From positions 5,765-37,764 of the forward strand of contig JAWCFL010000019.1 of the NCBI GenBank assembly GCA_038858525.1: DNA of 32,000 nucleotides, written 5' to 3'. Shown here piece by piece: positions 12,534 to 25,671 of the stretch (the stretch's first letter is position 1; each line of letters begins with the position of its first letter). The DNA comes from Candidatus Jordarchaeales archaeon (GTDB lineage: Archaea; Asgardarchaeota; Jordiarchaeia; Jordiarchaeales; Freyrarchaeaceae). The notes below the pieces were generated by a model, which worked only from the letters and a program-made list of their open reading frames with translations, was not told the DNA's origin and searched no databases. A program made the translations under genes and the position numbers.

Positions 12534-12897
12534 AGAAAGTGAATAAAAAAGTAATCAATCCAAAACAAACAATACGCCAGAAAAACAGGAAAACAAAGTG
12601 AGACAAAAGCTAAACGAAAACCGACAGCGTTTTTAAAAAGCCGAAACCTCTATTACGGGAAAATTCGGAGCTGAAAGGCGAAACGCCGTTTTCGAGTGAT
12701 GCTTTCTGCGAATTTGATGTTTCAAAGCAAAATCTTCTTTTACAAATGTTGAAAAATTCCCAATTTTTAAGTGTCTTTTTTGCGAAAAAATTTAAAAACC
12801 CTCAAGGACGAGTTCCCAAGGGAAACTAAACTCCCCTCTCGCGGAGAAACGAAGAATCGAACCACAATTCTAGGAGCCCTCTCCGAGGTGAGGCAGT

Positions 12898-13149
12898 ATG
12901 AATTTGAAGGACCTAATAAGAGAAGTGATCGAGCGCGGAATATACTATGAAGGCGCCATCATTCTGAAAAGCCTAGCCGAGAAATTACACGACATCGAGA
13001 AGGGTGAAGGAGACTGTGGAATTATCGAAGCCTTCGAAATAGGACTCCTCCTAGGCTCTCTGAGAAACCACCTCTTCTACGACGAGTATATTAAACTCGA
13101 AAACCTAGTTTTGGATTCTATCGAAAAATGCTTGCTGAGAAAGAAATAA
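12898..13149 (+). CDS. Small hypothetical protein (83 aa)
   Basis: Strong GAGGTGAGG RBS before the ATG; natural-looking helical composition; no family recognised. Confidence 0.7.
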   Translation: MNLKDLIREVIERGIYYEGAIILKSLAEKLHDIEKGEGDCGIIEAFEIGLLLGSLRNHLFYDEYIKLENLVLDSIEKCLLRKK

Positions 13150-13177
13150 AAATTAAGCATCAAGCAACAAAGTAACG

Positions 13178-13289
13178 AACCCCAAAAGAAATGACCGCAT
13201 AACCAGTTTGGCACGCTTTGAGGTTTGCTAGGGCTGCTGTGCTTAACAAGGCAACCCCAAAAGAAATGACCGCATAACCAGTTTGGCAC
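13178..13289. repeat. Two identical 37-bp direct repeats with a 38-bp unique spacer (mini-array geometry; CRISPR status unproven)
   Basis: AACCCCAAAAGAAATGACCGCATAACCAGTTTGGCAC at 13178-13214 and 13253-13289; spacer GCTTTGAGGTTTGCTAGGGCTGCTGTGCTTAACAAGGC. Confidence 0.9.
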
Positions 13290-13623
13290 CCGCTCGCACC
13301 CCAAACTAGCTTATCTTTCACCTCATCTTTCTCCTACCTCCTCATCAATCTCTCCGTCCATTTTTCGCCTCCGGCTTCATAGAGAATTAATGGTTAATTA
13401 TTAATGCCGTGCCAGCTTGTATAATGCTGAAAACCTACTGAAGGATCACATTAATTGATGACGTGGCTTGCTTACAGTCTCTAACGGCCCAGTCTTTCCT
13501 TCAAAGACACTGCTGGCTCTCGTGTTTTATCATTTATCTATAAATCTATCTTTTCCATTTATCAACACTTTTTTATTTAAGCACTATTAAGGGGGAGTCT
13601 AGAGGCGCTGGGGTTGACTGGTT

Positions 13624-14400
13624 GTGATGAAAATCGAGAGCATAACGATAATTGGAGGGTATGGGAAGTCTGGTTTACCTGAGCCAGTGAGGGAAGTGGA
13701 GCTTAGAAGAGGAGAAATTGTCAGCATTGTTGGCCCAACGGGCTCTGGGAAGACTACGTTGATAAACGACATAGAGATGTTTGCGTCTGGAGACACGCCG
13801 ACGAAGCGAAAAATACTTGTAAACGGTGGGGGGGTGCCGGAAGAGATTAGAAGTAGCCCTCATATTAACCCGATTGCCAGGATAACCCAGCACACGACCT
13901 TTCTGTCCGATCTTCCAGTTTACGATTTCCTGTCTATTCATGCAATGATCAGGCAGGATGGGGATGAGCGCTTAGTGAAAAGGACGCTGGACCTGGCAAA
14001 TCAATTGTCGGGTGAGAACATAGTGCCGAACATCCGTATGACTGAGCTGTCGGGCGGTCAGACGAGGGCCCTGCTCATTGCTGACGCTGTGGTCATCGGG
14101 AATACGCCGGTCGTTCTGATCGATGAGGTCGAGAACACGGGAATATATAAAGATAGAGCGCTGAAGATACTGAGAGAGTGCCAGAAGATGTTGATATTTG
14201 TGACGCATGACCCGCTGATTGCCTTATCCTCAGACCTCCGGATCGTTATGCGGAATGGTGCAATGGTGAAGGTTGTGAGGACGACTGAGGACGAGAAGGC
14301 TGTCCTGCAGGAAGTTAAAAGGCTGGACGACATCCTGAGCGAGTTGAGGGAGAACATAAGGCTTGGAAACCCGATTGGGCTCAAAAAGGTGGTAACGTGA
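13624..14400 (+). CDS. ABC-type ATPase with no adjacent permease
   Basis: Walker A GPTGSGKTT, Q-loop ITQH, signature LSGGQ, Walker B VVLIDE, atypical D-loop (VENTG), H-switch VTHD. Confidence 0.9.
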   Translation: MMKIESITIIGGYGKSGLPEPVREVELRRGEIVSIVGPTGSGKTTLINDIEMFASGDTPTKRKILVNGGGVPEEIRSSPHINPIARITQHTTFLSDLPVYDFLSIHAMIRQDGDERLVKRTLDLANQLSGENIVPNIRMTELSGGQTRALLIADAVVIGNTPVVLIDEVENTGIYKDRALKILRECQKMLIFVTHDPLIALSSDLRIVMRNGAMVKVVRTTEDEKAVLQEVKRLDDILSELRENIRLGNPIGLKKVVT

Positions 14401-15098
14401 AACTGGTTATTTGCGCAGGACCCCCATCCTCCGGAAAAACAGCAGTTTTAAAGTTTACATGTGAGAAACTTATCCGGAAGGGTTACAAAGTCGCGTATCT
14501 CAAAATAGATACCCAGTATGCGACGGAGGATGAAGTGTTTAGAGAAGCGCTCGGGATACCGACAAAGAAAGTGTATACTGGAGACCTGTGTCCCGACCAT
14601 GTGAACGTACTGGTTCTCGGAGACGGATTAGACTGGGCTAGGAGCATGGGCGCCGATATCTTCTTAGTTGAGTCTGCCGGGTTATGCTTGAGGTGTGCCC
14701 CCTACGTGGAAGGCGGGCTTGGCGTCGTCGTTCTAGAAGCTACAAGTGGCATCCAGCTGCCACTAAAACTCGGACCTCTACTCTCACTTGCAGACGTCGC
14801 TGTCATGACAAAGATAGACCTTGTTTCGCAAGCGGAGAGGGAGGTGTTCAGGGCTAGAATCAACGAGGTTGCTCCAGATGTGCACGTCATAGAGGCAGAC
14901 GCCCTACACGGAATAGGCATTGACCCCCTCGTGAGAAAGATAGAGAGATACCCCGAGCTCTCAGGGGAGCCCGTGCTAAGAGGCGTGCCCCCCCTCGGCG
15001 TTTGCACTATATGCGTTGGGAAGAAGGAAGTAGGATGGAATAAGCATTTCGGAATACTGAGAACTCTGGAAAGCGACCTGTTCTATCGGGGTGAATAA
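14397..15098 (+). CDS. G3E-family (HypB/UreG-like) metal-binding GTPase
   Basis: GPPSSGKT, CPDH (like UreG CPH), VESAG (ESxG Walker B), LCLRC, TKID (NKxD variant), C-terminal CTIC. GTGA overlap with the ATPase gene. Confidence 0.85.
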   Translation: MKLVICAGPPSSGKTAVLKFTCEKLIRKGYKVAYLKIDTQYATEDEVFREALGIPTKKVYTGDLCPDHVNVLVLGDGLDWARSMGADIFLVESAGLCLRCAPYVEGGLGVVVLEATSGIQLPLKLGPLLSLADVAVMTKIDLVSQAEREVFRARINEVAPDVHVIEADALHGIGIDPLVRKIERYPELSGEPVLRGVPPLGVCTICVGKKEVGWNKHFGILRTLESDLFYRGE

Positions 15099-15731
15099 AT
15101 GAGAAAAGAGGAGATCCTTAAGAGGCTGCAGAACAGAAATTGCGGAATGTGCGGCTTCGGCTCGTGCATCCGATTCGCAGAGGAAGCGGAAAAAAACGCT
15201 GGCCTACTAGAAAGGTGCATGTACCTGAAAGAGGACAGCGAGACGGAGGAAACTAGACACGCAGAGTACGCTGAAGAAGACATCATAGGCGGAAAGTACG
15301 ACTTCATCCTAATGCCGCTTCCAAACGAGAAATCATGCAGAGAGTTTATCTTACCATTCAACCCCATCCTCACACGGGAACTGGACATCAAGAAGGGCGA
15401 CATCATCGTCGGGAGACCAATGGGCCAAGGATGCCCAGTCCAACACGTGCTGGAAGTAATAGACATCGACAGGTTCTGCGTTATAACAGCCTGGGTCGTC
15501 GGCCCACAACACTCACGAAGCAGAGACTTCAAAGAGATCGGACCCTACAGCCTAGTCGCCTTCGAAGGCCTAGCAAAAGTAATGAGCCGAGAACCAATGT
15601 TCGGCCACCGACAACGATTCCTACCAGGATACTGCATGATGAACCTCACGCACACAGGACTAGTGAACTTCGTAAACAAAACAAAAAGAGGAATACACGT
15701 CAGACTAGAAGACATAATAATCGGAGTCTAA
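15099..15731 (+). CDS. Fe-S cluster-binding protein (N-terminal CxxCxxxxC...C domain)
   Basis: NCGMCGFGSC...C resembles the small Fe-S domain of RnfB/AcsC; further Cys in GCPVQH and GYCM; abuts the GTPase stop codon. Confidence 0.75.
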   Translation: MRKEEILKRLQNRNCGMCGFGSCIRFAEEAEKNAGLLERCMYLKEDSETEETRHAEYAEEDIIGGKYDFILMPLPNEKSCREFILPFNPILTRELDIKKGDIIVGRPMGQGCPVQHVLEVIDIDRFCVITAWVVGPQHSRSRDFKEIGPYSLVAFEGLAKVMSREPMFGHRQRFLPGYCMMNLTHTGLVNFVNKTKRGIHVRLEDIIIGV

Positions 15732-15810
15732 CCAACCAGCAACAACCCCCACACCATAAAACCACCACCAAGACAAGTTAACCTCACCTCTCGCCGAGAC
15801 CAGTGTGCCA

Positions 15811-15888
15811 AGAAAGAAATGAAAAATAAACATCAAACAACGAAATCATGAACCCCCAACCAAGACGAGACGCATAACTAGTTTGGCA
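15811..15888 (+). repeat. Degenerate ~80-bp copy of 13138-13214
   Basis: By-eye alignment: 38 of the first 46 nt identical without gaps (AGAAAGAAAT...GAACCCC); the 3' core CGCATAACTAGTTTGGCA matches the 37-bp repeat at 17/18. Confidence 0.8.
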
Positions 15889-16214
15889 TATGTCTACGCT
15901 CTAGTATTACTCATTCATCACCTCACTCATCCTCTCTGAAGCGCCCTCAGCAATTTCCCGCTCCCCCCTCCCCCACTCCCGGCTTCTCAGCCACGTAACC
16001 ACAATGCAAAGCCGCCACCCCACCTCTCTCTTCATTTCTTCCACCCACAAAAAGGCAAAAACAAAATTCCCCTCCAAAAATCATAAAAAAGCCACACATT
16101 TCAAGTGAGGCTACCAAACTCACAAAAATGAAGGATCTTCTCCGCAGAAAAACCACATCGAAAAAAATAAAAGAAACTTTTTCCACACATAATAAACCGA
16201 AAATAAATTACGGG

Positions 16215-17123
16215 ATGGGGGGAGCGGTGAAAAGACCTATAGCGGTTTTTCTCCTAGCACTCTCATTTACATTGCTGCTCCTAGCAGCCCCAGCCACACC
16301 ACCCATAGCAACACCACCCACACTAACAACAGCAACACCGCAACAAACACCACAACCAAAAGAAACACAAACAGAAGCAATTTCTGTTGGTATACTACTT
16401 AGTCCCAGCGGTTTCCCGTTCTCGATGGTCAGTTTCAGATTCCATGTTGGGCCGATTCTGAGCATTAATCCTCCTCCAGAGAAATTTGAAAACCTCACAC
16501 ATGCCTCGATCTCAATTAACGCTTTTGACAGTAGCCTTTACGCGTTCATCGGTGTGGATTTTGTGAATGTGGACGAGAACTATTGTATGACTGCGTTGGT
16601 TGAGCTCGCCGAACAAATGCTAGACAAACTCTCAACAATAGGAATAACACAACAGTCAAACTTAACTCACGTGTACACGGAGAACTCTACTGTTCGTGGA
16701 TCTTGCCAGGTTTTCCTTTCTGGTGACGCTTCTAGTTTGGCTTCTCTGATTCCGGATGGGACGCTTGCACGTAAATTCATGGAAACCTACACGAACAAAA
16801 GCATAAGTTGCAGCATAATTTCCTCCTCCGGGAGCCTAAAAGTTGTCGACAGTGCTGGCGTGTCAACCTTTTCCGTATGGAATATTCTAACAAACAGCAC
16901 TTTCGGCGACATCATGGCTGTAAACTTCTCGTTGAAAAAAGCCCTAAACACCACAGGAGAAATCAAACTAAACAGAACAACGACCATACTAATTTCAGGA
17001 AGCTACTATGCTGCCCCTCACTCGATGTCTCTTGTAGCGATTGGCTTTGACCCTCGTCCATCATTCCTTTTGAGTAGCAACTTTTTCTTCTACAATTTCT
17101 CCGCTGGATCGGTAATAAGGTGA
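16215..17123 (+). CDS. N-terminal part of a secreted, S-layer-like glycoprotein (frameshifted at ~17117)
   Basis: Signal peptide KRPIAVFLLALSFTLLLLAAPA, Pro/Thr/Gln-rich linker, many NxS/T sequons. Start at ATG 16215 or GTG 16227 (purine-rich RBS), not 16128. Confidence 0.7.
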   Translation: MGGAVKRPIAVFLLALSFTLLLLAAPATPPIATPPTLTTATPQQTPQPKETQTEAISVGILLSPSGFPFSMVSFRFHVGPILSINPPPEKFENLTHASISINAFDSSLYAFIGVDFVNVDENYCMTALVELAEQMLDKLSTIGITQQSNLTHVYTENSTVRGSCQVFLSGDASSLASLIPDGTLARKFMETYTNKSISCSIISSSGSLKVVDSAGVSTFSVWNILTNSTFGDIMAVNFSLKKALNTTGEIKLNRTTTILISGSYYAAPHSMSLVAIGFDPRPSFLLSSNFFFYNFSAGSVIR

Positions 17124-18630
17124 TGTTAGTGTTCTCTTCGCCGCATCGCCCCCTACAGACTGTGAAGTGTCCCTCGTGTTCCCAGACCCAATAACGAACT
17201 CACTGATGATCAGCTCACAAGTGGCCACCTTTAACAAAACTCTGCCATTCGTAGACTTCTCCAATTCAAGCACTTTTCAGAACCTCACAGGTTACAGCAT
17301 CAGCGTGAATTATCTCTCCCGATTGTACTATCCCATGTTCACTGAACTCTCGGACTTCTACAGAACAATCTTCCCAGAAATCTTCCCAGAAATTGAAGAA
17401 ATAGAAATCGCTCAATCGTTGTTATCCCTGCTATCTCAAAGGTCGATAGTGACTGTGAACATAGTTGTAGCGTTCTCGAATGTGAATGAAACGTATTGCG
17501 ATAACGCATTGAACGACTTGGCTAACCAGATAAAAAGCAAGTTTTCGGCAACCCCAATATACGAAACAAAGAATATCTCTGCAGATTTCAATTGGGTGAA
17601 TGGAATGTATATTTTTATTTTCGGTGAGGAGGCTGCTTCAGAGCTGTTTAAACTCGTCCCGGAGGGGACCATTATACAGTTGTCTCTTAACTCCGGAGTT
17701 CCAATGATGTTCTCAGTCTTCTCTATAGGTAATATTATTGGAAATGATATTTTTAATATGACTATGTTTACTGGTGATGCTCTTTTTGAAGGTGGGCTTT
17801 CTGGTAGTCTTGGCGGTGAGTTTAGCTTTTCATTGCGGGGTGTCTTGAACGCTTCAAGTGGCTTCACGTTAAGCTTACCGACGGTCGTCGTCACCCACTC
17901 GCCCGGCAACCTCACAGATTACACCCAAAATGTCCCTGTTATTGCTACGTCTACGCCAAACTTCTTCTCTGTGGCGTGGTACCTCGCCTCCGGGTCGGGG
18001 CTGGACCTATATGTGCGCTTCTCCTGCGATCTACGTTATACCTCTGGGTTCAGGTCGTGGGAACTTCCAGACCCTGGAGCCTATGAGCTTAGCTTCGAGC
18101 AAGCCCTCACCAGCATGACGGTTAACGTGAGCGCGCCTGTCAGGCTTAACGCTTCCCTCACGACGGAGAACCCGGTCGGGGCTAGCGTGGATGCGTTGGC
18201 TGACGGGGCGTCTAAGGATGCCGGCTTCCTAGGGTGGTTTGCCTGCATTGAGGTCAACAATTCGGCAGCTCTACAAGAGATAACGCTGACGGTATACTAC
18301 TACGACGAGGAGGTTGAGGCTGCGGGACTAAAAGAAGAAACACTCTCACTATACTACTGGAATGGATCAGCATGGGTCAAAATAGAATCAACAGTCGACA
18401 CCCAGAGGAACACCATAACAGCCAGAGTAAACCACACAACATATTTCGCAATAATAGGTGAGAAGGCGGTAGCAGCACCACCAATTAATTTGCAGCTCTT
18501 CTTGCTCCTCCAGCTGCTCCAGTTGATGTCGGGTAGGTCGACGCTTCTGCTCGTGGTGACGTCTGGAGGCGTAGTCATAGCGGCTGTGGCGTTGGCACTG
18601 CTAATCATGAGAAGGCGTAGATTCACCTAA
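17119..18630 (+). CDS. C-terminal part of the same surface glycoprotein, with membrane anchor
   Basis: Frame open from 17119 with no signal peptide. Contains a second copy of the N-terminal domain, a beta-rich LSLYYWNGSAWV...ITARVNHTTYFAI module seen in archaeal surface proteins, and a hydrophobic anchor with an RRRR tail. Confidence 0.75.
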   Translation, partial: GDVSVLFAASPPTDCEVSLVFPDPITNSLMISSQVATFNKTLPFVDFSNSSTFQNLTGYSISVNYLSRLYYPMFTELSDFYRTIFPEIFPEIEEIEIAQSLLSLLSQRSIVTVNIVVAFSNVNETYCDNALNDLANQIKSKFSATPIYETKNISADFNWVNGMYIFIFGEEAASELFKLVPEGTIIQLSLNSGVPMMFSVFSIGNIIGNDIFNMTMFTGDALFEGGLSGSLGGEFSFSLRGVLNASSGFTLSLPTVVVTHSPGNLTDYTQNVPVIATSTPNFFSVAWYLASGSGLDLYVRFSCDLRYTSGFRSWELPDPGAYELSFEQALTSMTVNVSAPVRLNASLTTENPVGASVDALADGASKDAGFLGWFACIEVNNSAALQEITLTVYYYDEEVEAAGLKEETLSLYYWNGSAWVKIESTVDTQRNTITARVNHTTYFAIIGEKAVAAPPINLQLFLLLQLLQLMSGRSTLLLVVTSGGVVIAAVALALLIMRRRRFT

Positions 18631-19023: not shown

Positions 19024-20160
19024 CTAACTCGAGGCGATTTTTTCCGCTAGAACGCGCCCCCTGTATGCCACCCAGTACTCTTCATCCCTTTCACCCTGGC
19101 GTATCTTCGAAGCCTCAACTCTTGATGCTCTAAGCAACAGCTCAGCTCTCTGCAGCTCTCCTCCCTGAAGAGCGATGAAGAGGAGCTTAACCAGCTCAAC
19201 AGCCCTGTCGTGAACCCTGTCCCCGACCGCCGGCGTGAGAGCTCCTTGAAGCAGCCACCTCAAAAATTTAGACGCGTTCTCATCTTCTCTAATTTTCCTC
19301 AGCGCCCTACCCGACCTAGCAATGAATGAACCCAAAGGAAGATAGTATGACACGCCGATCTCCGCCGCCTTCTGTCCTCCCGGGTCCTTCATGCTTACGA
19401 GTATGATGTCTGGAGCGTCGTCGGGCACGAGCATGGCAAGCCACAATATAACGGCCTCCTCAGGTCTTAACCCTGGAGGTAGCCCCCAGCCCTCCTCTTG
19501 AGAGAGGCACTCAACCAGCCGTCTGAAGACCAGGGGGTTTGCTCCAATGTCGTAAGGAAAGACGTGCAGCGTGTGCCATGCCTGTTGTCCTCCTCCTGCC
19601 TCATACTTCACTCTTCCACACCTTGAAAGCACGTACCCCGCCAGCAGAATCATGAAGTAATCCAGGTTCACCTTTGCGTCGTACTTTTCTTTACCTTTCA
19701 TGAAGGGCGCTCGTGAAAGAGCATATTGCTCCGGCTTGAATATGCTGGGAAGCGAAAACTCCCCCTTCCCGAAACGGGAGAAGGCGGCGGCAGTGTCCTG
19801 CGGCTTATAGCTTCTAAGCTCATTGGAGTAGGCGGTTAGCGCGTCAAGGAACGAGCTCCCCTCCGGCAAAGAGAGTCTCTTCATAAGTGATGCGAATATT
19901 TTCTTGTCGTTGCCTGATGCTGGAATTTCGACTCCCTTCCAGCGTTCGTGGTACCTTTTTAGTGTGAGGGTGGCTTGACTAATTCCGCCTGCGAGGAGTT
20001 CAGCCACGCTTCCCGCGGTCGTGCGAATCTCTAAACGGTCACCATAGACAGCCGTGCTCTCAATTTTTCCCCTCTCAAGGAAGGAGATGAATGTTAGCAT
20101 GTAGTACCTTGCTACTCCCGGAGGCAAAACAATACTGCCTCTTTTCTCATCCAGCATCAC
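19024..20160 (-). CDS. cas8a: Type I-A Cascade large subunit, Cas8a2/Csa4-like (or CsaX-like)
   Basis: Last gene of a csa5-cas7-cas5-cas3'-cas3'' operon, matching the type I-A order in crenarchaea; 378 aa. Call rests mainly on position; the sequence is divergent. Confidence 0.6.
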   Translation of the reverse strand: MMLDEKRGSIVLPPGVARYYMLTFISFLERGKIESTAVYGDRLEIRTTAGSVAELLAGGISQATLTLKRYHERWKGVEIPASGNDKKIFASLMKRLSLPEGSSFLDALTAYSNELRSYKPQDTAAAFSRFGKGEFSLPSIFKPEQYALSRAPFMKGKEKYDAKVNLDYFMILLAGYVLSRCGRVKYEAGGGQQAWHTLHVFPYDIGANPLVFRRLVECLSQEEGWGLPPGLRPEEAVILWLAMLVPDDAPDIILVSMKDPGGQKAAEIGVSYYLPLGSFIARSGRALRKIREDENASKFLRWLLQGALTPAVGDRVHDRAVELVKLLFIALQGGELQRAELLLRASRVEASKIRQGERDEEYWVAYRGRVLAEKIASS

Positions 20161-20873
20161 ACCACCTCCTCGATCTCCTCTATAAACGCTCTTCTCACCT
20201 CATTCACCTCCCCTCTTCGTCTAGCATCCAAGTTATCGGCTATTATCAAGGGGTTCATGACGAGCACGTAGAGCTTCAACCACTTCTCAACCCTATTCAT
20301 CTTCCTCACCCCATTAATCCACGAGTAGAAACTACTAACATCCTCGCCTCTCAAAACGGCTCCCCTCAAGTTAACGTTGAACTTTTCGAACGTAGACGGG
20401 AGATCCCCTTCACAGAACCCTTCCTTCACTATGCCGAGCACCTTGCCTCTGTCGTCGCCCTCCGAAATCATCTTGAATGGGTTTCTCATCGCGTGATGGT
20501 GGTTTAAAACGCTTAGAACAACCAGAACCTTTTCCACACTCGCCCACTTGGGCTGGGTGCTGAGAAACTTGTAGCACATAGCGGCGGACGCAACTTCGTG
20601 ATATTGAAACCCAACTCTGTTAGAGGAACAATTATCGTCAAACCTTTTCTGAAAGTAGTTGTATGCTTTTCCGACGTCGTGGAACAGGACGGCCAGTCTA
20701 GCCATCTCCTCAACCTTCTCCGGCTCAACGGTTCTCTCTCCGAGGGCTGCCCTAATCCTCCTAGAGGCAACCTCGAAGTAGCCCTGATTCTTTCTCGTGA
20801 AGGCTTCCAGCATGCTGAGGCAGCCTTCAATATGGCTTGTCAGGGGTTGCCCGACGAAGGCGCACGGCTTCAA
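20157..20873 (-). CDS. cas3'': CRISPR-associated HD nuclease Cas3''
   Basis: SHIEGC, LFHDVGKA (HD), HEVASA, NHHH and IIADNLDA motifs; coupled to cas3'. Confidence 0.93.
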   Translation of the reverse strand: MKPCAFVGQPLTSHIEGCLSMLEAFTRKNQGYFEVASRRIRAALGERTVEPEKVEEMARLAVLFHDVGKAYNYFQKRFDDNCSSNRVGFQYHEVASAAMCYKFLSTQPKWASVEKVLVVLSVLNHHHAMRNPFKMISEGDDRGKVLGIVKEGFCEGDLPSTFEKFNVNLRGAVLRGEDVSSFYSWINGVRKMNRVEKWLKLYVLVMNPLIIADNLDARRRGEVNEVRRAFIEEIEEVV

Positions 20874-22549
20874 TCGCTAACCCCCACATACCCTACTTCG
20901 CGGTCTATCTCGTCCAGAACTATGCCCTCATAGTTGTTCCTAAGAAGCTCTAGCGACAAGTTGTTTGCCCTCAAAAGCGCCCTCCTACTCCTCTCGTCTA
21001 GAGCCTCTATCCTTCCGTCCTTGACGACGTTTGCCCCATGCATTATCGCCTTTCTCGCCATGTTCTCCGATAATCCCACGGCGTTCTGCAGGTAGCTTCC
21101 GTTATTAACGTCCTCAGCGGCGAAAGCAGACACGATGCCGAAGGAAGCCGTCAATCCACCGACAGCCTCGATGAGCCTCCTTGCATCTTGCGCCGTAAGG
21201 AAGGGGTAAGCGTCCAAGTCTCCGAGCAGCCGTCCAAAGACCTCAAACTGCTGGTCGAGCTTCCCTACGCGCTCCTCACAGTAAACCTCACTCATCACCG
21301 CCCTGACTTCGTCCTCAACCTTACTCCTCGGACGGAAGTCATCATGCCCCTCAATAAGTCTCCAGGTCGCATCTATCACGTTTTTATCGTAGACCCCACT
21401 CGAGACCTGCTTGACGACCACGACTTCCCCCTCATAGTGCTCTTCCTTCCTAGCGACGCGCCCCATTCTCTGCAGGAGCCTGTCAGGCGGACAAACCTCG
21501 GTCACGAGCACATCAAAGCTCTCATCTATCCCGGCCTCGACAACCTGTGTGGCGACCAGTGTTTTAGCCCTCCCAAGCTCCTTAGCCCTCTCCCTCTTAA
21601 CTGACTCCGGTAGTCTCCCGTGAAGAAGAACGGAGTTGACGCCCCTACTCCTCAGTTCCCTATAAACCTCAACGGCAGCCTTCACGGTGTTCAGCACTAT
21701 GAGCACCCTTTTACCTTGCCCGCAGTAGCCTACGGCCGCATCCAAGACGCCGCCCTCCCACACGGTTAACTTAATCCTCTTCCTTCTCCTCTCCTCCTCG
21801 AACTGCGGGTCTTTCTCTGGGGAGTAAGCTTCCTCCTCAAACTTCAAGCCGAAGCTTTCCACCTGCCTCTTCAGGAAGTCCTTGAGTGCTCTAGGCATTG
21901 TCGCAGTCATGACTACTGTGGGAACGCCGACGCTGGCCATTTGGATTATAGCCCTCGTAGCCGCATAGAGCGCTTTGGCTTCATCGTCGAAGGAGGGGAA
22001 ATCGCCAGTAGAAGACGGCTGGAGAAGGTGGAATTCGTCGAAGACAACGAGTGAAGAGTAAATGTTCCCTCTTGGAAACTCGTAGTGCGACACGTCATAC
22101 TTGAAGAGCTTCGCCAGCTCGCAAGCTGGAGCCTTGTAGAAGTTGAGCATAAACGTGTCGAGCGTGACGACAACGCATTTCTTCGCGAAGAATGGTGAGC
22201 CCGGGGACCCCATATGCTGTATACCGACCACGCCGGGGTAATATCCGAGCTTCTCCATCCATTTGCGCAGTCTTCCACCTAAGTCGTCAGCTATCGTCCT
22301 CATGGGGAGAACGTGTATCACCCTTGAGAAGAAGGGGTTCCCGTCAACCGCCACCTTGGCTAGCGCGAGCGTCATAGCGGACTTACCATACCCCGCCGGG
22401 TACTCCATGAAAACTACGCCGTTTTCGCCGTTGCTAAAAAGACAGTCGAGCCTTTCAAGTACCCTTGAAACTCCAAGCCTCACTCTCCACTTCGCTCCCT
22501 CCAATGCCCTGCACACTTTTTCATACTCGTCTCGGAGCGACTCAGCCAT
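20870..22549 (-). CDS. cas3': CRISPR-associated SF2 helicase Cas3'
   Basis: PAGYGKS, HVLPMR, TLDTF, DEFH, MTAT, LLHGR, QVVEAGID and QRMGRVAR motifs. Start placed at ATG 22549 (MAESLR), overlapping the cas5 stop; the ORF track starts at 22594. Confidence 0.95.
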   Translation of the reverse strand: MAESLRDEYEKVCRALEGAKWRVRLGVSRVLERLDCLFSNGENGVVFMEYPAGYGKSAMTLALAKVAVDGNPFFSRVIHVLPMRTIADDLGGRLRKWMEKLGYYPGVVGIQHMGSPGSPFFAKKCVVVTLDTFMLNFYKAPACELAKLFKYDVSHYEFPRGNIYSSLVVFDEFHLLQPSSTGDFPSFDDEAKALYAATRAIIQMASVGVPTVVMTATMPRALKDFLKRQVESFGLKFEEEAYSPEKDPQFEEERRRKRIKLTVWEGGVLDAAVGYCGQGKRVLIVLNTVKAAVEVYRELRSRGVNSVLLHGRLPESVKRERAKELGRAKTLVATQVVEAGIDESFDVLVTEVCPPDRLLQRMGRVARKEEHYEGEVVVVKQVSSGVYDKNVIDATWRLIEGHDDFRPRSKVEDEVRAVMSEVYCEERVGKLDQQFEVFGRLLGDLDAYPFLTAQDARRLIEAVGGLTASFGIVSAFAAEDVNNGSYLQNAVGLSENMARKAIMHGANVVKDGRIEALDERSRRALLRANNLSLELLRNNYEGIVLDEIDREVGYVGVSD

Positions 22550-23378
22550 AACCAACCACGACCTCGCCGTTAACCTCGAATGCCTGTCCCTCATTTAGAA
22601 GGGAAACCTTAACCTCTCCACTCATCAATGGGACCCTTGACCCCGGAACAATATATTCTTCATACTTCAAAGCCACATTTCTACCCCATCCTCCGCTCCA
22701 GAAAGCTTCTCTGTAGTAATTTCCCTCCTCAACGTTTCCAAGCCTTGCTGGGAAGTAGTATCGCGTCACTACAACCCTGTCCTTGATGGGTTTTGCCTTA
22801 GAAACGAGGACTTCATCGACGGATACTATGGACTCCCTGCTTCCAACCCTCGTCATCTGCCAAGCAGCCTTTCTCAGCTCGTCCTCGAGATTTCCAGCCA
22901 CAACCTCTTTCGCCTCCTCTTTAACCAGCAAGACCATAGAAACCCTCCCGGAAGGATAGTAGACCTTCCCGACGGGCAAAGCCCCCATCCTATACTTCAT
23001 CAGGTACCTCCGCCCCCCAACCGCCTCCTCTTCATTAGTATCCTTCACGGTCTCCTGAAATAGAAGAGTCACACACTTGCTTAAGTCATCCCACATGTAG
23101 CCGAAGGAGTGTGCGGAGTCAAAGCGTGCAGCAGCGTAAATATATTCCTCCAGTAGCCCAGCTGGGCTCATGAGTCCCCTTTCTGAGTCGAAGACCACAT
23201 CCCCCTCCTGCCTCATGCCGCGGAAAGACAGAACCCCCTTTCTGGCCAGGGGGTAAGCTAGAGCCCCAACGATAGTTGTCGGGGGCGGTATGGGGAGAGT
23301 GCCCTGAAACTTGCTCGTGCCCGGCTCCCTCACCCAGAAGCCCCAATGGTAACACGCCCTAACAGTCAAAGCCAGCAT
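22542..23378 (-). CDS. cas5: Type I-A Cas5
   Basis: N-terminal HWGFWVREP...TLPIPPPTTIVGALA and C-terminal MTRVGSRESIVSV Gly-loop, typical of Cas5a. Confidence 0.9.
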   Translation of the reverse strand: MLALTVRACYHWGFWVREPGTSKFQGTLPIPPPTTIVGALAYPLARKGVLSFRGMRQEGDVVFDSERGLMSPAGLLEEYIYAAARFDSAHSFGYMWDDLSKCVTLLFQETVKDTNEEEAVGGRRYLMKYRMGALPVGKVYYPSGRVSMVLLVKEEAKEVVAGNLEDELRKAAWQMTRVGSRESIVSVDEVLVSKAKPIKDRVVVTRYYFPARLGNVEEGNYYREAFWSGGWGRNVALKYEEYIVPGSRVPLMSGEVKVSLLNEGQAFEVNGEVVVGYG

Positions 23379-23422: not shown

Positions 23423-24457
23423 CTACGAGGCCTTCCCTTTCACCGCCGCGACGACACGCTTTAGGAACTCTTCCAGATTCCCCGAGACGTCGACGCCCTC
23501 AACTTTCTCAATGGCTTTCTCCTTATCCATGGCGAACAGCAAGACCCCGGCTCCATCCTCCTTCTCTCCTTTTCGCAACTCCCTCATGAGAGCCTCGAAG
23601 CTGCTCTTCCTGCTAACCGTCTCCTCTATGAATTTCTTCGAGTTCCCCGGAGAGACCACGAAGAAGGTGTTCCTCGATACTGCTGCGATAGCTGAGAGTG
23701 GCTCCATGTTTGGCAAAAACCTGCTCCTCTTCGCCCCAAACCTCAACTGAGTTAGGAAAATGCTCAGCGCTGAAAGAGCAGCCGTCACACGCTTCTCCTT
23801 CTCATTCTCAAGCTGCTTCTCCAGCTTCTCATCCCTTTCGCCGAAGCTCGTCGACGGCTTAGCTATTTGCGAGATGTCCATGTTCAACGTGAAAGTGTAA
23901 ACTGCAGATCCAACCTCGACATTGTAGGGCTGCTGCAAACTCATGAGTGACGGTGTAAACCTGACATGGAATTGCGCCTCGAGGGCGGCGGCCTCAACCT
24001 CGAACACTGCGGGAACCATGTAGCCTACTTGGAACGTGGAAGTCCTCTTAACCGGGTACCTGCCAGCGTAGAGGAAGCCTCCAACATCACACACGTAGTC
24101 CCTCAGCATTATTTCGACTTCAGCCCTGCGTATCTCACGCTCGCTCCCCGGAACCTTCACCCCATACTTCTCCAAGAAGCTCTCGTCCGCGAACTTTATG
24201 AACTCCCCCCTCTCGGACTCCTCGCTCAGCGGCAGCCCAACCCTCTTAGCCTCCTCGACGAGGTGAACCTGGTAGGCGTGCGCGAGAGACTCGCCGGAAA
24301 CCGTGGGCACAAACCTTATAGAGTAACCTCCATCCCCGCTTGGAACAACTATGGGCGCCGTCCTGTGCCTGACGAGGTTGCCAACGGTCTCAACGCTGTT
24401 AAGGCTCTCCAGGTTAACCAAAACCCTGAAAGCTATACTCAGAAACGCGTCAGCCAC
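23423..24457 (-). CDS. cas7: Type I-A Cas7 (Csa2/DevR family)
   Basis: ESLNSVETVGNLVRHR, VSGESLAHAYQ, CDVGGFL, VKRTSTFQVGY, EAQFHVR and FGAKRSRFLP. Start placed at GTG 24457 with a GGAGGTGG RBS. Confidence 0.95.
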   Translation of the reverse strand: MADAFLSIAFRVLVNLESLNSVETVGNLVRHRTAPIVVPSGDGGYSIRFVPTVSGESLAHAYQVHLVEEAKRVGLPLSEESERGEFIKFADESFLEKYGVKVPGSEREIRRAEVEIMLRDYVCDVGGFLYAGRYPVKRTSTFQVGYMVPAVFEVEAAALEAQFHVRFTPSLMSLQQPYNVEVGSAVYTFTLNMDISQIAKPSTSFGERDEKLEKQLENEKEKRVTAALSALSIFLTQLRFGAKRSRFLPNMEPLSAIAAVSRNTFFVVSPGNSKKFIEETVSRKSSFEALMRELRKGEKEDGAGVLLFAMDKEKAIEKVEGVDVSGNLEEFLKRVVAAVKGKAS

Positions 24458-24471
24458 ACAACCACCTCCAA

Positions 24472-24897
24472 TCACGCAGACCTCCTAGAAGCGGCAGACA
24501 AACAAGATGCAACCATCGACATAGCGTAGCTAGCCACGCTCCTAGCCAACCTCACATCCTTCGAAGCAGCCTCCAGAAACATCCTCACCTGCTCGTTGTC
24601 CGCAAGGTAGCCATCCACCACGTACTCCTCCTCATCAATTATCACGCGTACCCTGGTGAGCTCCCTTCCACCGCCCTCAAACTTCTCCTCACAAACACCC
24701 TGCCGCCCTCCACTATCGCGGTACCTTCTCAAAAGGTTCTCGAGAATCCTGGCATTCTCGTAGATAGCCCTGCTAACACTGTCAATGGAGAGAGCGTTAG
24801 CAACCCTATCGATCACGGAGTAGCTTTTCGATGCAACGCAAACGACAGCCAGAGAAGTCGCAACCCCCCTATACTTCGAAAGCTCAATAGCTTGCAT
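24472..24897 (-). CDS. csa5: Type I-A small subunit Csa5 (Cas11)
   Basis: First gene of the operon; SYSVIDRVANALSIDSVSRAIYE resembles Csa5; 141 aa. Confidence 0.82.
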   Translation of the reverse strand: MQAIELSKYRGVATSLAVVCVASKSYSVIDRVANALSIDSVSRAIYENARILENLLRRYRDSGGRQGVCEEKFEGGGRELTRVRVIIDEEEYVVDGYLADNEQVRMFLEAASKDVRLARSVASYAMSMVASCLSAASRRSA

Positions 24898-25026: not shown

Positions 25027-25671
25027 GTGGGGTTATTGGCGAGAACGGGTAAAGGCACAGCGATAGTTGCGTCTTTGGGTTTCGAGGAGAGGTTCCTCTT
25101 AAGGGCAGTCATAAGAAGAGGAGTCAAGGAAAACGACAAGATAGTAGTTATAATGCCCGAGAAGGGGGACCCGCGAGGAGAGAAAGCCTTCCAAACGCTG
25201 AAAGAACTGTTAGACAAAGCCTTCCCCCAAATAGAGCTAATCAAGCACGAGGTGAACGTCCAAGACTTCTACGGTGCCATCAGCAACCTCAGAAACCTTC
25301 TAAACAAGCTAAACCTAGAAAACAACATAGTACTCAACCTAAGCGGCGGCCAAAGACTTCTAATACTCGAAATACTGGCGGCCGCACTAAGCCTGGGAAT
25401 CAACGCGGAGCTGGAAATCGAGACAGAGGACTCCTCCGTTTACCTAACAATCCCAATAAAAACCATGCACCAGTTAAAGCTAGACCGGATAGACCAAGAA
25501 ATACTGAGAAAGGTCGCCGAAAGAGGCGAAATAAGACTCAAAGACTTGGAGGAGCTAAAAATACCGAAAGCTACCTTGTGGAGGAAGCTAAACAGGCTAA
25601 CAGAAGACGGCCTCCTCGAAAAGGACAGGGACAGGTACAAGCTAAGCGACATAGGGCGAGCATGGATGTAA
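25027..25671 (+). CDS. csa3: CRISPR locus transcription regulator Csa3 (CARF + wHTH)
   Basis: IVASLGFEERFLLR, VLNLSGGQRLLIL (CARF motif), C-terminal HTH IPKATLWRKLNRLTEDGLL...YKLSDIG; divergent from csa5. Confidence 0.92.
   Translation: MGLLARTGKGTAIVASLGFEERFLLRAVIRRGVKENDKIVVIMPEKGDPRGEKAFQTLKELLDKAFPQIELIKHEVNVQDFYGAISNLRNLLNKLNLENNIVLNLSGGQRLLILEILAAALSLGINAELEIETEDSSVYLTIPIKTMHQLKLDRIDQEILRKVAERGEIRLKDLEELKIPKATLWRKLNRLTEDGLLEKDRDRYKLSDIGRAWM

Follow-up and report, generated by a model that had tools for sequence, protein, structure and literature searches.

The repeat–spacer–repeat unit at positions 13178–13289 is probably a scar left by Cas1-Cas2 after it had integrated a spacer off target (non-canonically), i.e., a "neo-CRISPR" locus. 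The window (the whole 32,000-nt stretch that was analysed; G000:C19:5765–37764) lies on contig C19 (37.8 kb) of a 2.09-Mb draft genome in 63 contigs, and positions given with no contig name refer to the window. The features of an integration scar were found together here, i.e., a duplication of repeat length, an insert of spacer length, ordinary target DNA, a traceable protospacer, and an adaptation module with the matching ruler. Chance would not produce an exact 37-nt duplicate at a distance of 75 nt together with a 38/38 match of the insert elsewhere in a 2.1-Mb genome. In the proposed course of events, a 38-nt prespacer would have been cut from the region of the integrase's own gene (cas1 on contig C50). 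Instead of entering the array, it would have been integrated between genes, in ordinary DNA that follows a small ORF. Two staggered attacks 37 bp apart would correspond to the ruler of the native 37-nt repeat, and gap repair would then have duplicated these 37 bp to yield pseudo-repeat, spacer, and pseudo-repeat. The site may have been chosen as a mimic of a leader–repeat junction, with a very A-rich upstream stretch and a 3′ end (TTGnnAC) like that of real repeats.

Anatomy of the unit and nature of the duplicated DNA

The first copy of the pseudo-repeat (R1, 13178–13214, + strand), i.e., the duplicated target DNA on the pseudo-leader side, and the second copy (R2, 13253–13289, + strand) were identical at 37/37 positions and enclosed a spacer of 38 nt (13215–13252, + strand), as described in the original prediction. 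The bases bordering the two copies were unlike each other (G and C preceding, G and C following), and hence the duplication measures exactly 37 nt. The prediction had also pointed out that sizes of 37/38/37 match those of CRISPR arrays; they equal the native 37-nt repeat and its 37–39-nt spacers, most likely because a CRISPR integrase made the unit. A truncated ACCCCAAA, which had been noticed just beyond the unit, was seen again past R2 at 13298–13305 and is the inverted partner of AGTTTGG, the 3′ end of the 37-mer. The native downstream flank (13290–13310, + strand) contains ACCCCAAACT at 13298–13307, also an inverted partner of the AGTTTGG end, and the hairpin ACCCCAAACT/AGTTTGG was present in folds of 13178–13310.

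Alignment of the 37-mer to the 30-, 36-, and 37-nt repeats of the genome in both orientations gave no significant similarity, with scores at or below the shuffle means, and the 37-mer was not found elsewhere in the genome. Its exact 22-nt core had 0 matches in the collections genome_contigs, metagenome_contigs, and viral_contigs, and a 35-nt pattern allowing up to 3 mismatches was found in 0/399 other genomes of the phylum. The doubt originally voiced about the repeat was thus justified, and the comparison with the genome's arrays and the sequence collections, which had been suggested as a check, returned no similarity to any CRISPR repeat. On both strands, the folding of the 37-mer, its paralog (see below), and the whole unit did not exceed that of shuffled sequences (z from −0.70 to +1.77; 0.16 and 0.46 for the 37-mer), in agreement with the predicted weakness of the CCAAA/TTTGG stem. 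No Cas6 or Cascade handle was recognisable in the 37-mer; across the whole window, Rfam returned no family, and no tRNA or tmRNA genes were detected. A canonical CRISPR array was rejected, as the 37-mer is not a shared repeat family, occurs only here, and is unlike the four real repeat types. Since the 37-mer is unlike the real repeats of the genome, is found in no collection searched, has no significant fold, and is present as a diverged single copy in the paralog, it is best regarded as ordinary DNA that was duplicated.

R1 forms the right part of an element (A, 13132–13214, + strand) consisting of an A-rich pseudo-leader (13132–13177, + strand) followed by the 37-mer. A second element (B, 15805–15889, + strand) carries a single unexpanded pseudo-leader and pseudo-repeat and was used as a stand-in for the empty site. 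The repeat part of B (15851–15889) corresponds to the degenerate third copy that had been predicted at 15851–15888, and its alignment to the 37-mer reached a score of 39 compared to 13.9 ± 2.9 for dinucleotide shuffles (0/500). The pseudo-leader of A is 80% identical to 15805–15850, and the 45-nt A-rich parts of both elements aligned with a score of 50 (shuffles 21.8 ± 3.6; 0/500). The flanks of A and B showed no significant similarity, either downstream (30 compared to 25.1 ± 4.3; 70/500 shuffles) or upstream (21 compared to 17.2 ± 3.1; 62/500 shuffles), and an nhmmer search over the whole genome with a profile of A and B recovered A, B, and R2 and no further copy.

The gene preceding the unit is a conserved small ORF of 83 aa with no assigned family (12898–13149, + strand), whose stop codon lies 28 nt ahead of R1 and whose DNA is 78–82% identical in the same-genus genomes G002 and G003. 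The first 15–18 nt of A are the last codons of this ORF (LLRKK-stop), and this tail is conserved in G003 and G002, in both of which the homology stops just past the stop codon and no repeat unit follows. Because the left end of A is a conserved ORF tail, A is chromosomal and B a partial duplicate of A. Judged from the sequence, the position of the small ORF shows the site to be native chromosome, and B shows how A would have looked with a single 37-mer. Synteny with G003 extends to the small ORF and to the ABC-ATPase operon that follows it, but the intergenic stretch separating the two is unrelated there; G002 has the operon at another location. An orthologous empty site was found in neither G002 nor G003, where the DNA after the small ORF differs, and the pre-insertion state therefore rests on the paralog B, which is only ~80% identical.

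The right edge of the homology between A and B falls within 1–2 nt of the right edge of the 37-mer, a coincidence estimated at ~4% under random placement, which hints that the element may be a discrete unit with a property of its own. One possible explanation is that TTGGCAC is the edge of an old duplication or recombination and, at the same time, a good mimic of a repeat end; the other is that elements of the A/B type attract the integrase by some property.

A and B are direct 83–85-bp paralogs (~80% identical) that bracket a block at 13624–15731 encoding an ABC-ATPase, a HypB-CobW-like GTPase, and an Fe-S protein; this block follows the same small ORF in G003 and lies elsewhere in G002. B ends in GTGCCAA...TTGGCAT, and A is devoid of these ends, its left end being the tail of the native small ORF. 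A reading of the elements as MITEs was rejected for A, as this element begins with the conserved C-terminal codons of a native ORF, and neither the direct repeats A and B nor the ends of B explain a 37/38/37 unit with a cas1 insert when considered as a MITE or att site. The recombination-site or ncRNA repeat family offered in the original prediction was retained in part: the duplicated DNA does belong to a two-copy element of 83–85 bp, but this paralogy does not explain the 37/38/37 unit.

Origin of the spacer and the native adaptation module

When the region was compared with the entire genome by short-word BLAST, the only outside match was that of the spacer to G000:C50:9869–9832 (38/38, E 7.8e-16), and the identity with C50 ends exactly at both borders of the spacer. 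The source comprises codons 121–133, sense strand, of an intact cas1 gene (340-aa Cas1 ORF, C50:9207–10229; Pfam Cas_Cas1 1.2e-53). The guess that the spacer might be self-derived was thereby borne out, and the search of the spacer against the host genome, also part of the original prediction, led to the organism's own cas1. No further genomic target with an E-value below 0.65 was found, and the 28-nt core of the spacer, with which a foreign donor was sought, had 0 matches in metagenome_contigs and genome_contigs. Self-matches were absent among the other spacers of the genome, with those of the native arrays matching nothing in it, and three spacers of the native 37-nt-repeat array had no protospacer in viral_contigs. 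On the sense strand, the protospacer is flanked by TTG at the 5′ side and TGA at the 3′ side. For other type I-A systems, the reported PAM is CCN or TCN, and the 5′ flank TTG is neither. It also differs from CCN as reported for Pyrococcus furiosus (PMC5737086).

The donor gene belongs to a block of cas2, a Cas1-like gene (pseudo-cas1), cas1, and cas4 on C50, with a Cmr (type III-B) operon as its neighbour; the genes of this block are the adaptation genes with a matching ruler in the genome. The two cas1 genes form a tandem pair next to cas2 (C50:8345–9322 and C50:9207–10229); the spacer was copied from the strong member (Pfam 1.2e-53), and the partner is a weak Cas1-like gene (Pfam 1.3e-13; NCBIfam cas1 62 bits, below its cut-off). 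Past cas4, C50 terminates in an A/C-rich leader-like sequence, which recurs at contig ends of G002 and upstream of arrays of G004. The homologous leader on G004:C48 passes directly into a 37-nt repeat homologous to the repeat of contig C49, and the related leader on G002:C2 passes into 37-nt repeats with a ATTGAAAG end. As the leader enters 37-nt-repeat arrays in these relatives, the C50 module is positioned at an array leader of the 37-nt-repeat type. The conserved A/C-rich leader spans G000:C50 11125–11246, G004:C48 300–420, and G002:C2 40–150, and in the relatives a CTTAAAAA box lies 33–36 nt ahead of the first repeat.

The real arrays of the genome carry the repeats R30 (30 nt; C33 and C34), R36 (36 nt; C33), and R37b (37 nt; C49, with spacers of 37–39 nt). 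On C33 (1026–1900), a 27-nt junction separates the 30-nt array from the adjacent 36-nt array, and an A/C-rich leader-like stretch lies on the side of the 36-nt array when read on the minus strand, in which direction both repeats end in TTGAAAS. C49 opens in the middle of an array, and thus C50 (Cmr operon and adaptation genes) probably adjoins it and continues into the C49 array (pAgo and a second type III operon). The cas1 protospacer precedes the leader on C50, which is of the 37-nt-repeat type, by ~1.4 kb. In P. furiosus, most new spacers are derived from the host chromosome, and their hotspots flank active arrays as a result of the nicks that integration leaves in the DNA at these places (PMC5737086). 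A self-spacer from a cas1 gene in such a position would accordingly be an expected product of naive acquisition near an array.

Probable sister scars and the proposed choice of the integration site

The whole genome was scanned for exact direct repeats of 28–42 nt separated by 30–45 nt. Once the real arrays and a single tandem repeat of low complexity on C6 were set aside, exactly four two-copy units remained, namely C15:37573 (duplication 39 nt, insert 35 nt), C19:18942 (the unit at 13178–13289; 37 nt and 38 nt), C29:11732 (37 nt and 38 nt), and C34:1919 (37 nt and 39 nt). The duplicated sequences of the four scars are unrelated to each other, every duplication is perfect, and the geometry equals that of the native 37-nt repeat and its spacers; no scar had a length of 30 nt, the size of the repeat of the other active array. 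The inserts of the scars on C15, C29, and C34 had no source in the genome. As the four scars lie on different contigs, an integrase with a 37-nt ruler must be present in the same cell, which argues against C50 being a binning contaminant. Decayed scars of 36 or 37 nt with up to 4 mismatches were not found, and none was clearly of the 30-nt ruler. An imperfect 30-nt direct pair (27/30; period 72 nt) at C34:8279–8380 corresponds neither to a known repeat nor to the geometry of a 37-nt scar. The perfection of all four scars and the lack of decayed ones suggest a recent origin of the scars or their rapid loss through recombination between the two copies.

The 40 nt upstream of R1 consist of 60% A, which places them in the top 0.1% of genome windows; the real leaders of the genome contain 65–78% A. 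The stretch upstream of the C34 scar reaches 55% A, and those of the scars on C15 and C29 are not similarly A-rich. No significant similarity between the site at 13178–13289 and the real leaders was detected once composition was kept, i.e., the likeness is compositional only. For the comparison of repeat ends, sequences were oriented with the leader first, so that real repeats end in TTGAAAS or GGCAAC. The last 8 nt of the four scars matched a real repeat end at 6, 5, 5, and 7 of 8 positions; the sum of 23 compares to a mean of 3.42 per site for random genomic 37-mers (P = 7e-5), a statistic based on four sites and on a motif taken from the genome's own repeats. The scar at 13178–13289 taken individually (5/8, P about 0.15) is not significant. 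Its score was higher on the + strand (5) than on the − strand (2), which makes the + strand the likely "array" orientation. An A/T-rich box lies 25–32 nt upstream of R1 and is conserved in the paralog B. A scan for bacterial-type promoters and terminators in 12800–16200, which is unsuited to archaea, returned nothing above shuffles. Off-target integration at sites sharing features with the repeat has been described for the P. furiosus Cas1-Cas2 in vitro (PMC6698737).

Neither the repeats nor the spacer of the unit at 13178–13289 contain a mismatch, and this scar would therefore be recent or short-lived. The pseudo-repeat would lack the sequence needed by Cas6 and effectors, and hence the unit is probably inert. 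This would account for the tolerance of a perfect self-match and for the intact state of cas1. It is unlikely that an array was caught at birth instead, in which the pseudo-leader drives transcription, Cas6 or an effector tolerates the pseudo-repeat, and the first guide is directed against the integrase gene, or that A and B are preferred landing pads for new arrays. If such a nascent array did exist, it would provide a self-limiting feedback on a promiscuous adaptation module.

Alternative readings and known systems

The unit lies near a type I-A operon, whose genes were assigned via Pfam/NCBIfam on the − strand as csa5 (24472–24897), cas7/csa2 (23423–24475), cas5a (22542–23378), cas3′ (20870–22594), cas3″ HD (20157–20873), and a CsaX-like gene (19024–20160), with csa3 (25027–25671) on the + strand. 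The operon ends 5.7 kb from the unit, with five unrelated genes in between, and no CRISPR array was found on the 37.8-kb contig, in line with the array-less operon about 6 kb away that had been predicted. Two ORFs of 331 and 487 aa with no Pfam/NCBIfam family occupy 16128–18630 between element B and the operon, and the 331-aa ORF contains A/C-rich low-complexity repeats at about 16280–16380. Nothing supports a link between the unit and the array-less operon.

The original prediction had considered a mini-array feeding the nearby Cascade; this was not supported, as no Cas6 or Cascade handle was recognisable, the match is full and in a coding region, and the unit is absent from genomes of the same genus. 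More broadly, it is quite unlikely that the unit is a working non-canonical mini-array, transcribed from the A-rich box, processed, and yielding a guide by which the I-A Cascade, or else a type III complex, would target cas1, e.g., for restraining an over-active adaptation module. The perfect match of the spacer to a cas gene, the A/T-rich box ahead of R1 that is conserved in B, and the proximity of an array-less I-A operon with csa3 at 5.7 kb would fit such a role, and regulatory mini-arrays controlling cas genes are known (10.1101/2023.03.03.530964). However, the pseudo-repeat shows no significant likeness to the repeats of the genome and no fold, and a 38/38 pairing in a coding region would mean cleavage for a type I effector, yet cas1 is intact. 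A guide in the + orientation has the sense of the cas1 mRNA, and a type III complex could consequently not pair with the transcript. Furthermore, the unit is absent from three genomes of the same genus and from 399 genomes of the phylum, and its three sister units lie at unrelated places with spacers that have no genomic target.

Regulatory mini-arrays such as CreA of CreTA and those acting at the cas8 promoter resemble the unit in consisting of two repeat units and one spacer matching the organism's own CRISPR-Cas genes (10.1101/2023.03.03.530964). In these systems, the repeat-like units are derived from the repeat of the locus, the spacer matches partially at a promoter next to a PAM, and the arrangement is conserved among related loci and placed inside the cas locus (10.1101/2023.03.03.530964). 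An assignment of the unit to this class was rejected: its repeat is not derived from the locus (alignment scores at or below shuffle means), its match is full (38/38) and lies inside cas1 at codons 121–133 instead of being partial and at a promoter, and it is absent from G001–G004 and the 399 genomes of the phylum and located 5.7 kb outside the I-A operon.

It is very unlikely that the unit is the remnant or seed of a genuine but undescribed CRISPR type, in which A and B would each represent a true leader and repeat and the insertion would have been on target in a one-repeat array. A and B do form a discrete two-copy module (A-rich 45 nt followed by 37–39 nt), the homology stops at the end of the repeat, and the upstream part is as A-rich as real leaders. 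Against this, the left 15–18 nt of A are conserved codons of a native ORF and not an imported leader, the 37-mer was found nowhere else, no significant likeness to real leaders or repeats was detected beyond composition, and B is unexpanded. Least probable of all is an origin independent of Cas1-Cas2, i.e., filler DNA from break repair, a recombination footprint at A/B, or an assembly chimera, for which the direct repeats A and B flanking a three-gene block of variable position among relatives and the draft state of the genome (63 contigs) could be adduced, but break repair and site-specific recombination give no exact 37-bp target duplication around a 38-bp insert, assemblers do not surround a piece of a distant gene with short exact duplications, and the geometry of 37–39/35–39 nt at four independent loci equals the native repeat and spacer lengths.

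Off-target integration by Cas1-Cas2, the preferred reading, has its closest counterpart in the type I-E system of Escherichia coli, where it creates new repeat–spacer–repeat loci (Nivala, Shipman & Church 2018, Nat Microbiol 3:310, as cited in PMC6698737, PMC7054753, and 10.1101/148544). The E. coli loci reportedly likewise consist of a spacer-length insert in a duplication of non-CRISPR DNA of exactly the native repeat length, occur at several independent sites per genome, and lie at sites that loosely resemble a leader–repeat junction. The differences are that the present case is a natural archaeal event with a 37-bp ruler, whereas the E. coli loci reportedly arose from over-expressed proteins and a 28-bp repeat; that the donor of the spacer was traced here to the gene of the integrase itself; that the target still exists here in an unexpanded paralogous copy; and that the likely enzyme would be an unusual tandem module of Cas1 and a Cas1-like protein with Cas4. 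The donor, the paralogous unexpanded target, and the leader mimicry are what the unit adds to known neo-CRISPR cases. The in vitro integration by P. furiosus proteins is similar in that an archaeal integrase uses non-CRISPR sites resembling repeats, with a spacing equal to the repeat length (PMC6698737); plasmid substrates were used there, whereas a fixed chromosomal product was found here, for which the motif evidence is statistical and drawn from four sites. Self-spacers of P. furiosus also come from host DNA near a leader or array, where integration nicks create free ends (PMC5737086). In contrast to the present spacer, which lies outside any array, they entered real arrays and the cells were expected to die (PMC5737086). 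Landing outside any array may explain the persistence of the spacer.

Very short arrays or single repeats outside a normal locus are also a property of virus-borne mini-arrays, solitary repeat units, and RNA anti-CRISPRs. These elements mimic the host repeat and reside on mobile elements (PMC10651486), as reportedly also described by Faure et al. and Medvedeva et al. (both 2019). The repeat of the unit, in contrast, mimics nothing, and its neighbours are ordinary chromosomal genes.

The unit at 13178–13289 seems to document, as a rare natural case, an error that is otherwise known mostly from E. coli in the laboratory. It bears on the question of how new CRISPR arrays and repeat families originate, for which, according to 10.1101/148544, the sole direct evidence is an over-expression experiment in E. 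coli and the natural neo-CRISPR cases are circumstantial and come from two species. The unit would provide a clean natural example from an archaeon in which a known donor, a paralog showing the unexpanded target, and three sister events are combined, as is seldom the case. The sister events would offer a first look at what passes for a leader–repeat junction with the enzyme, i.e., a 37-bp ruler, an upstream stretch rich in A, and an end resembling TTGnAAS. The unit also points to a route by which a perfect self-targeting spacer may survive, namely insertion at a place from which no guide is expressed. In annotation, a "mini-array" of two repeats in the vicinity of cas genes should accordingly not be taken as functional by default.
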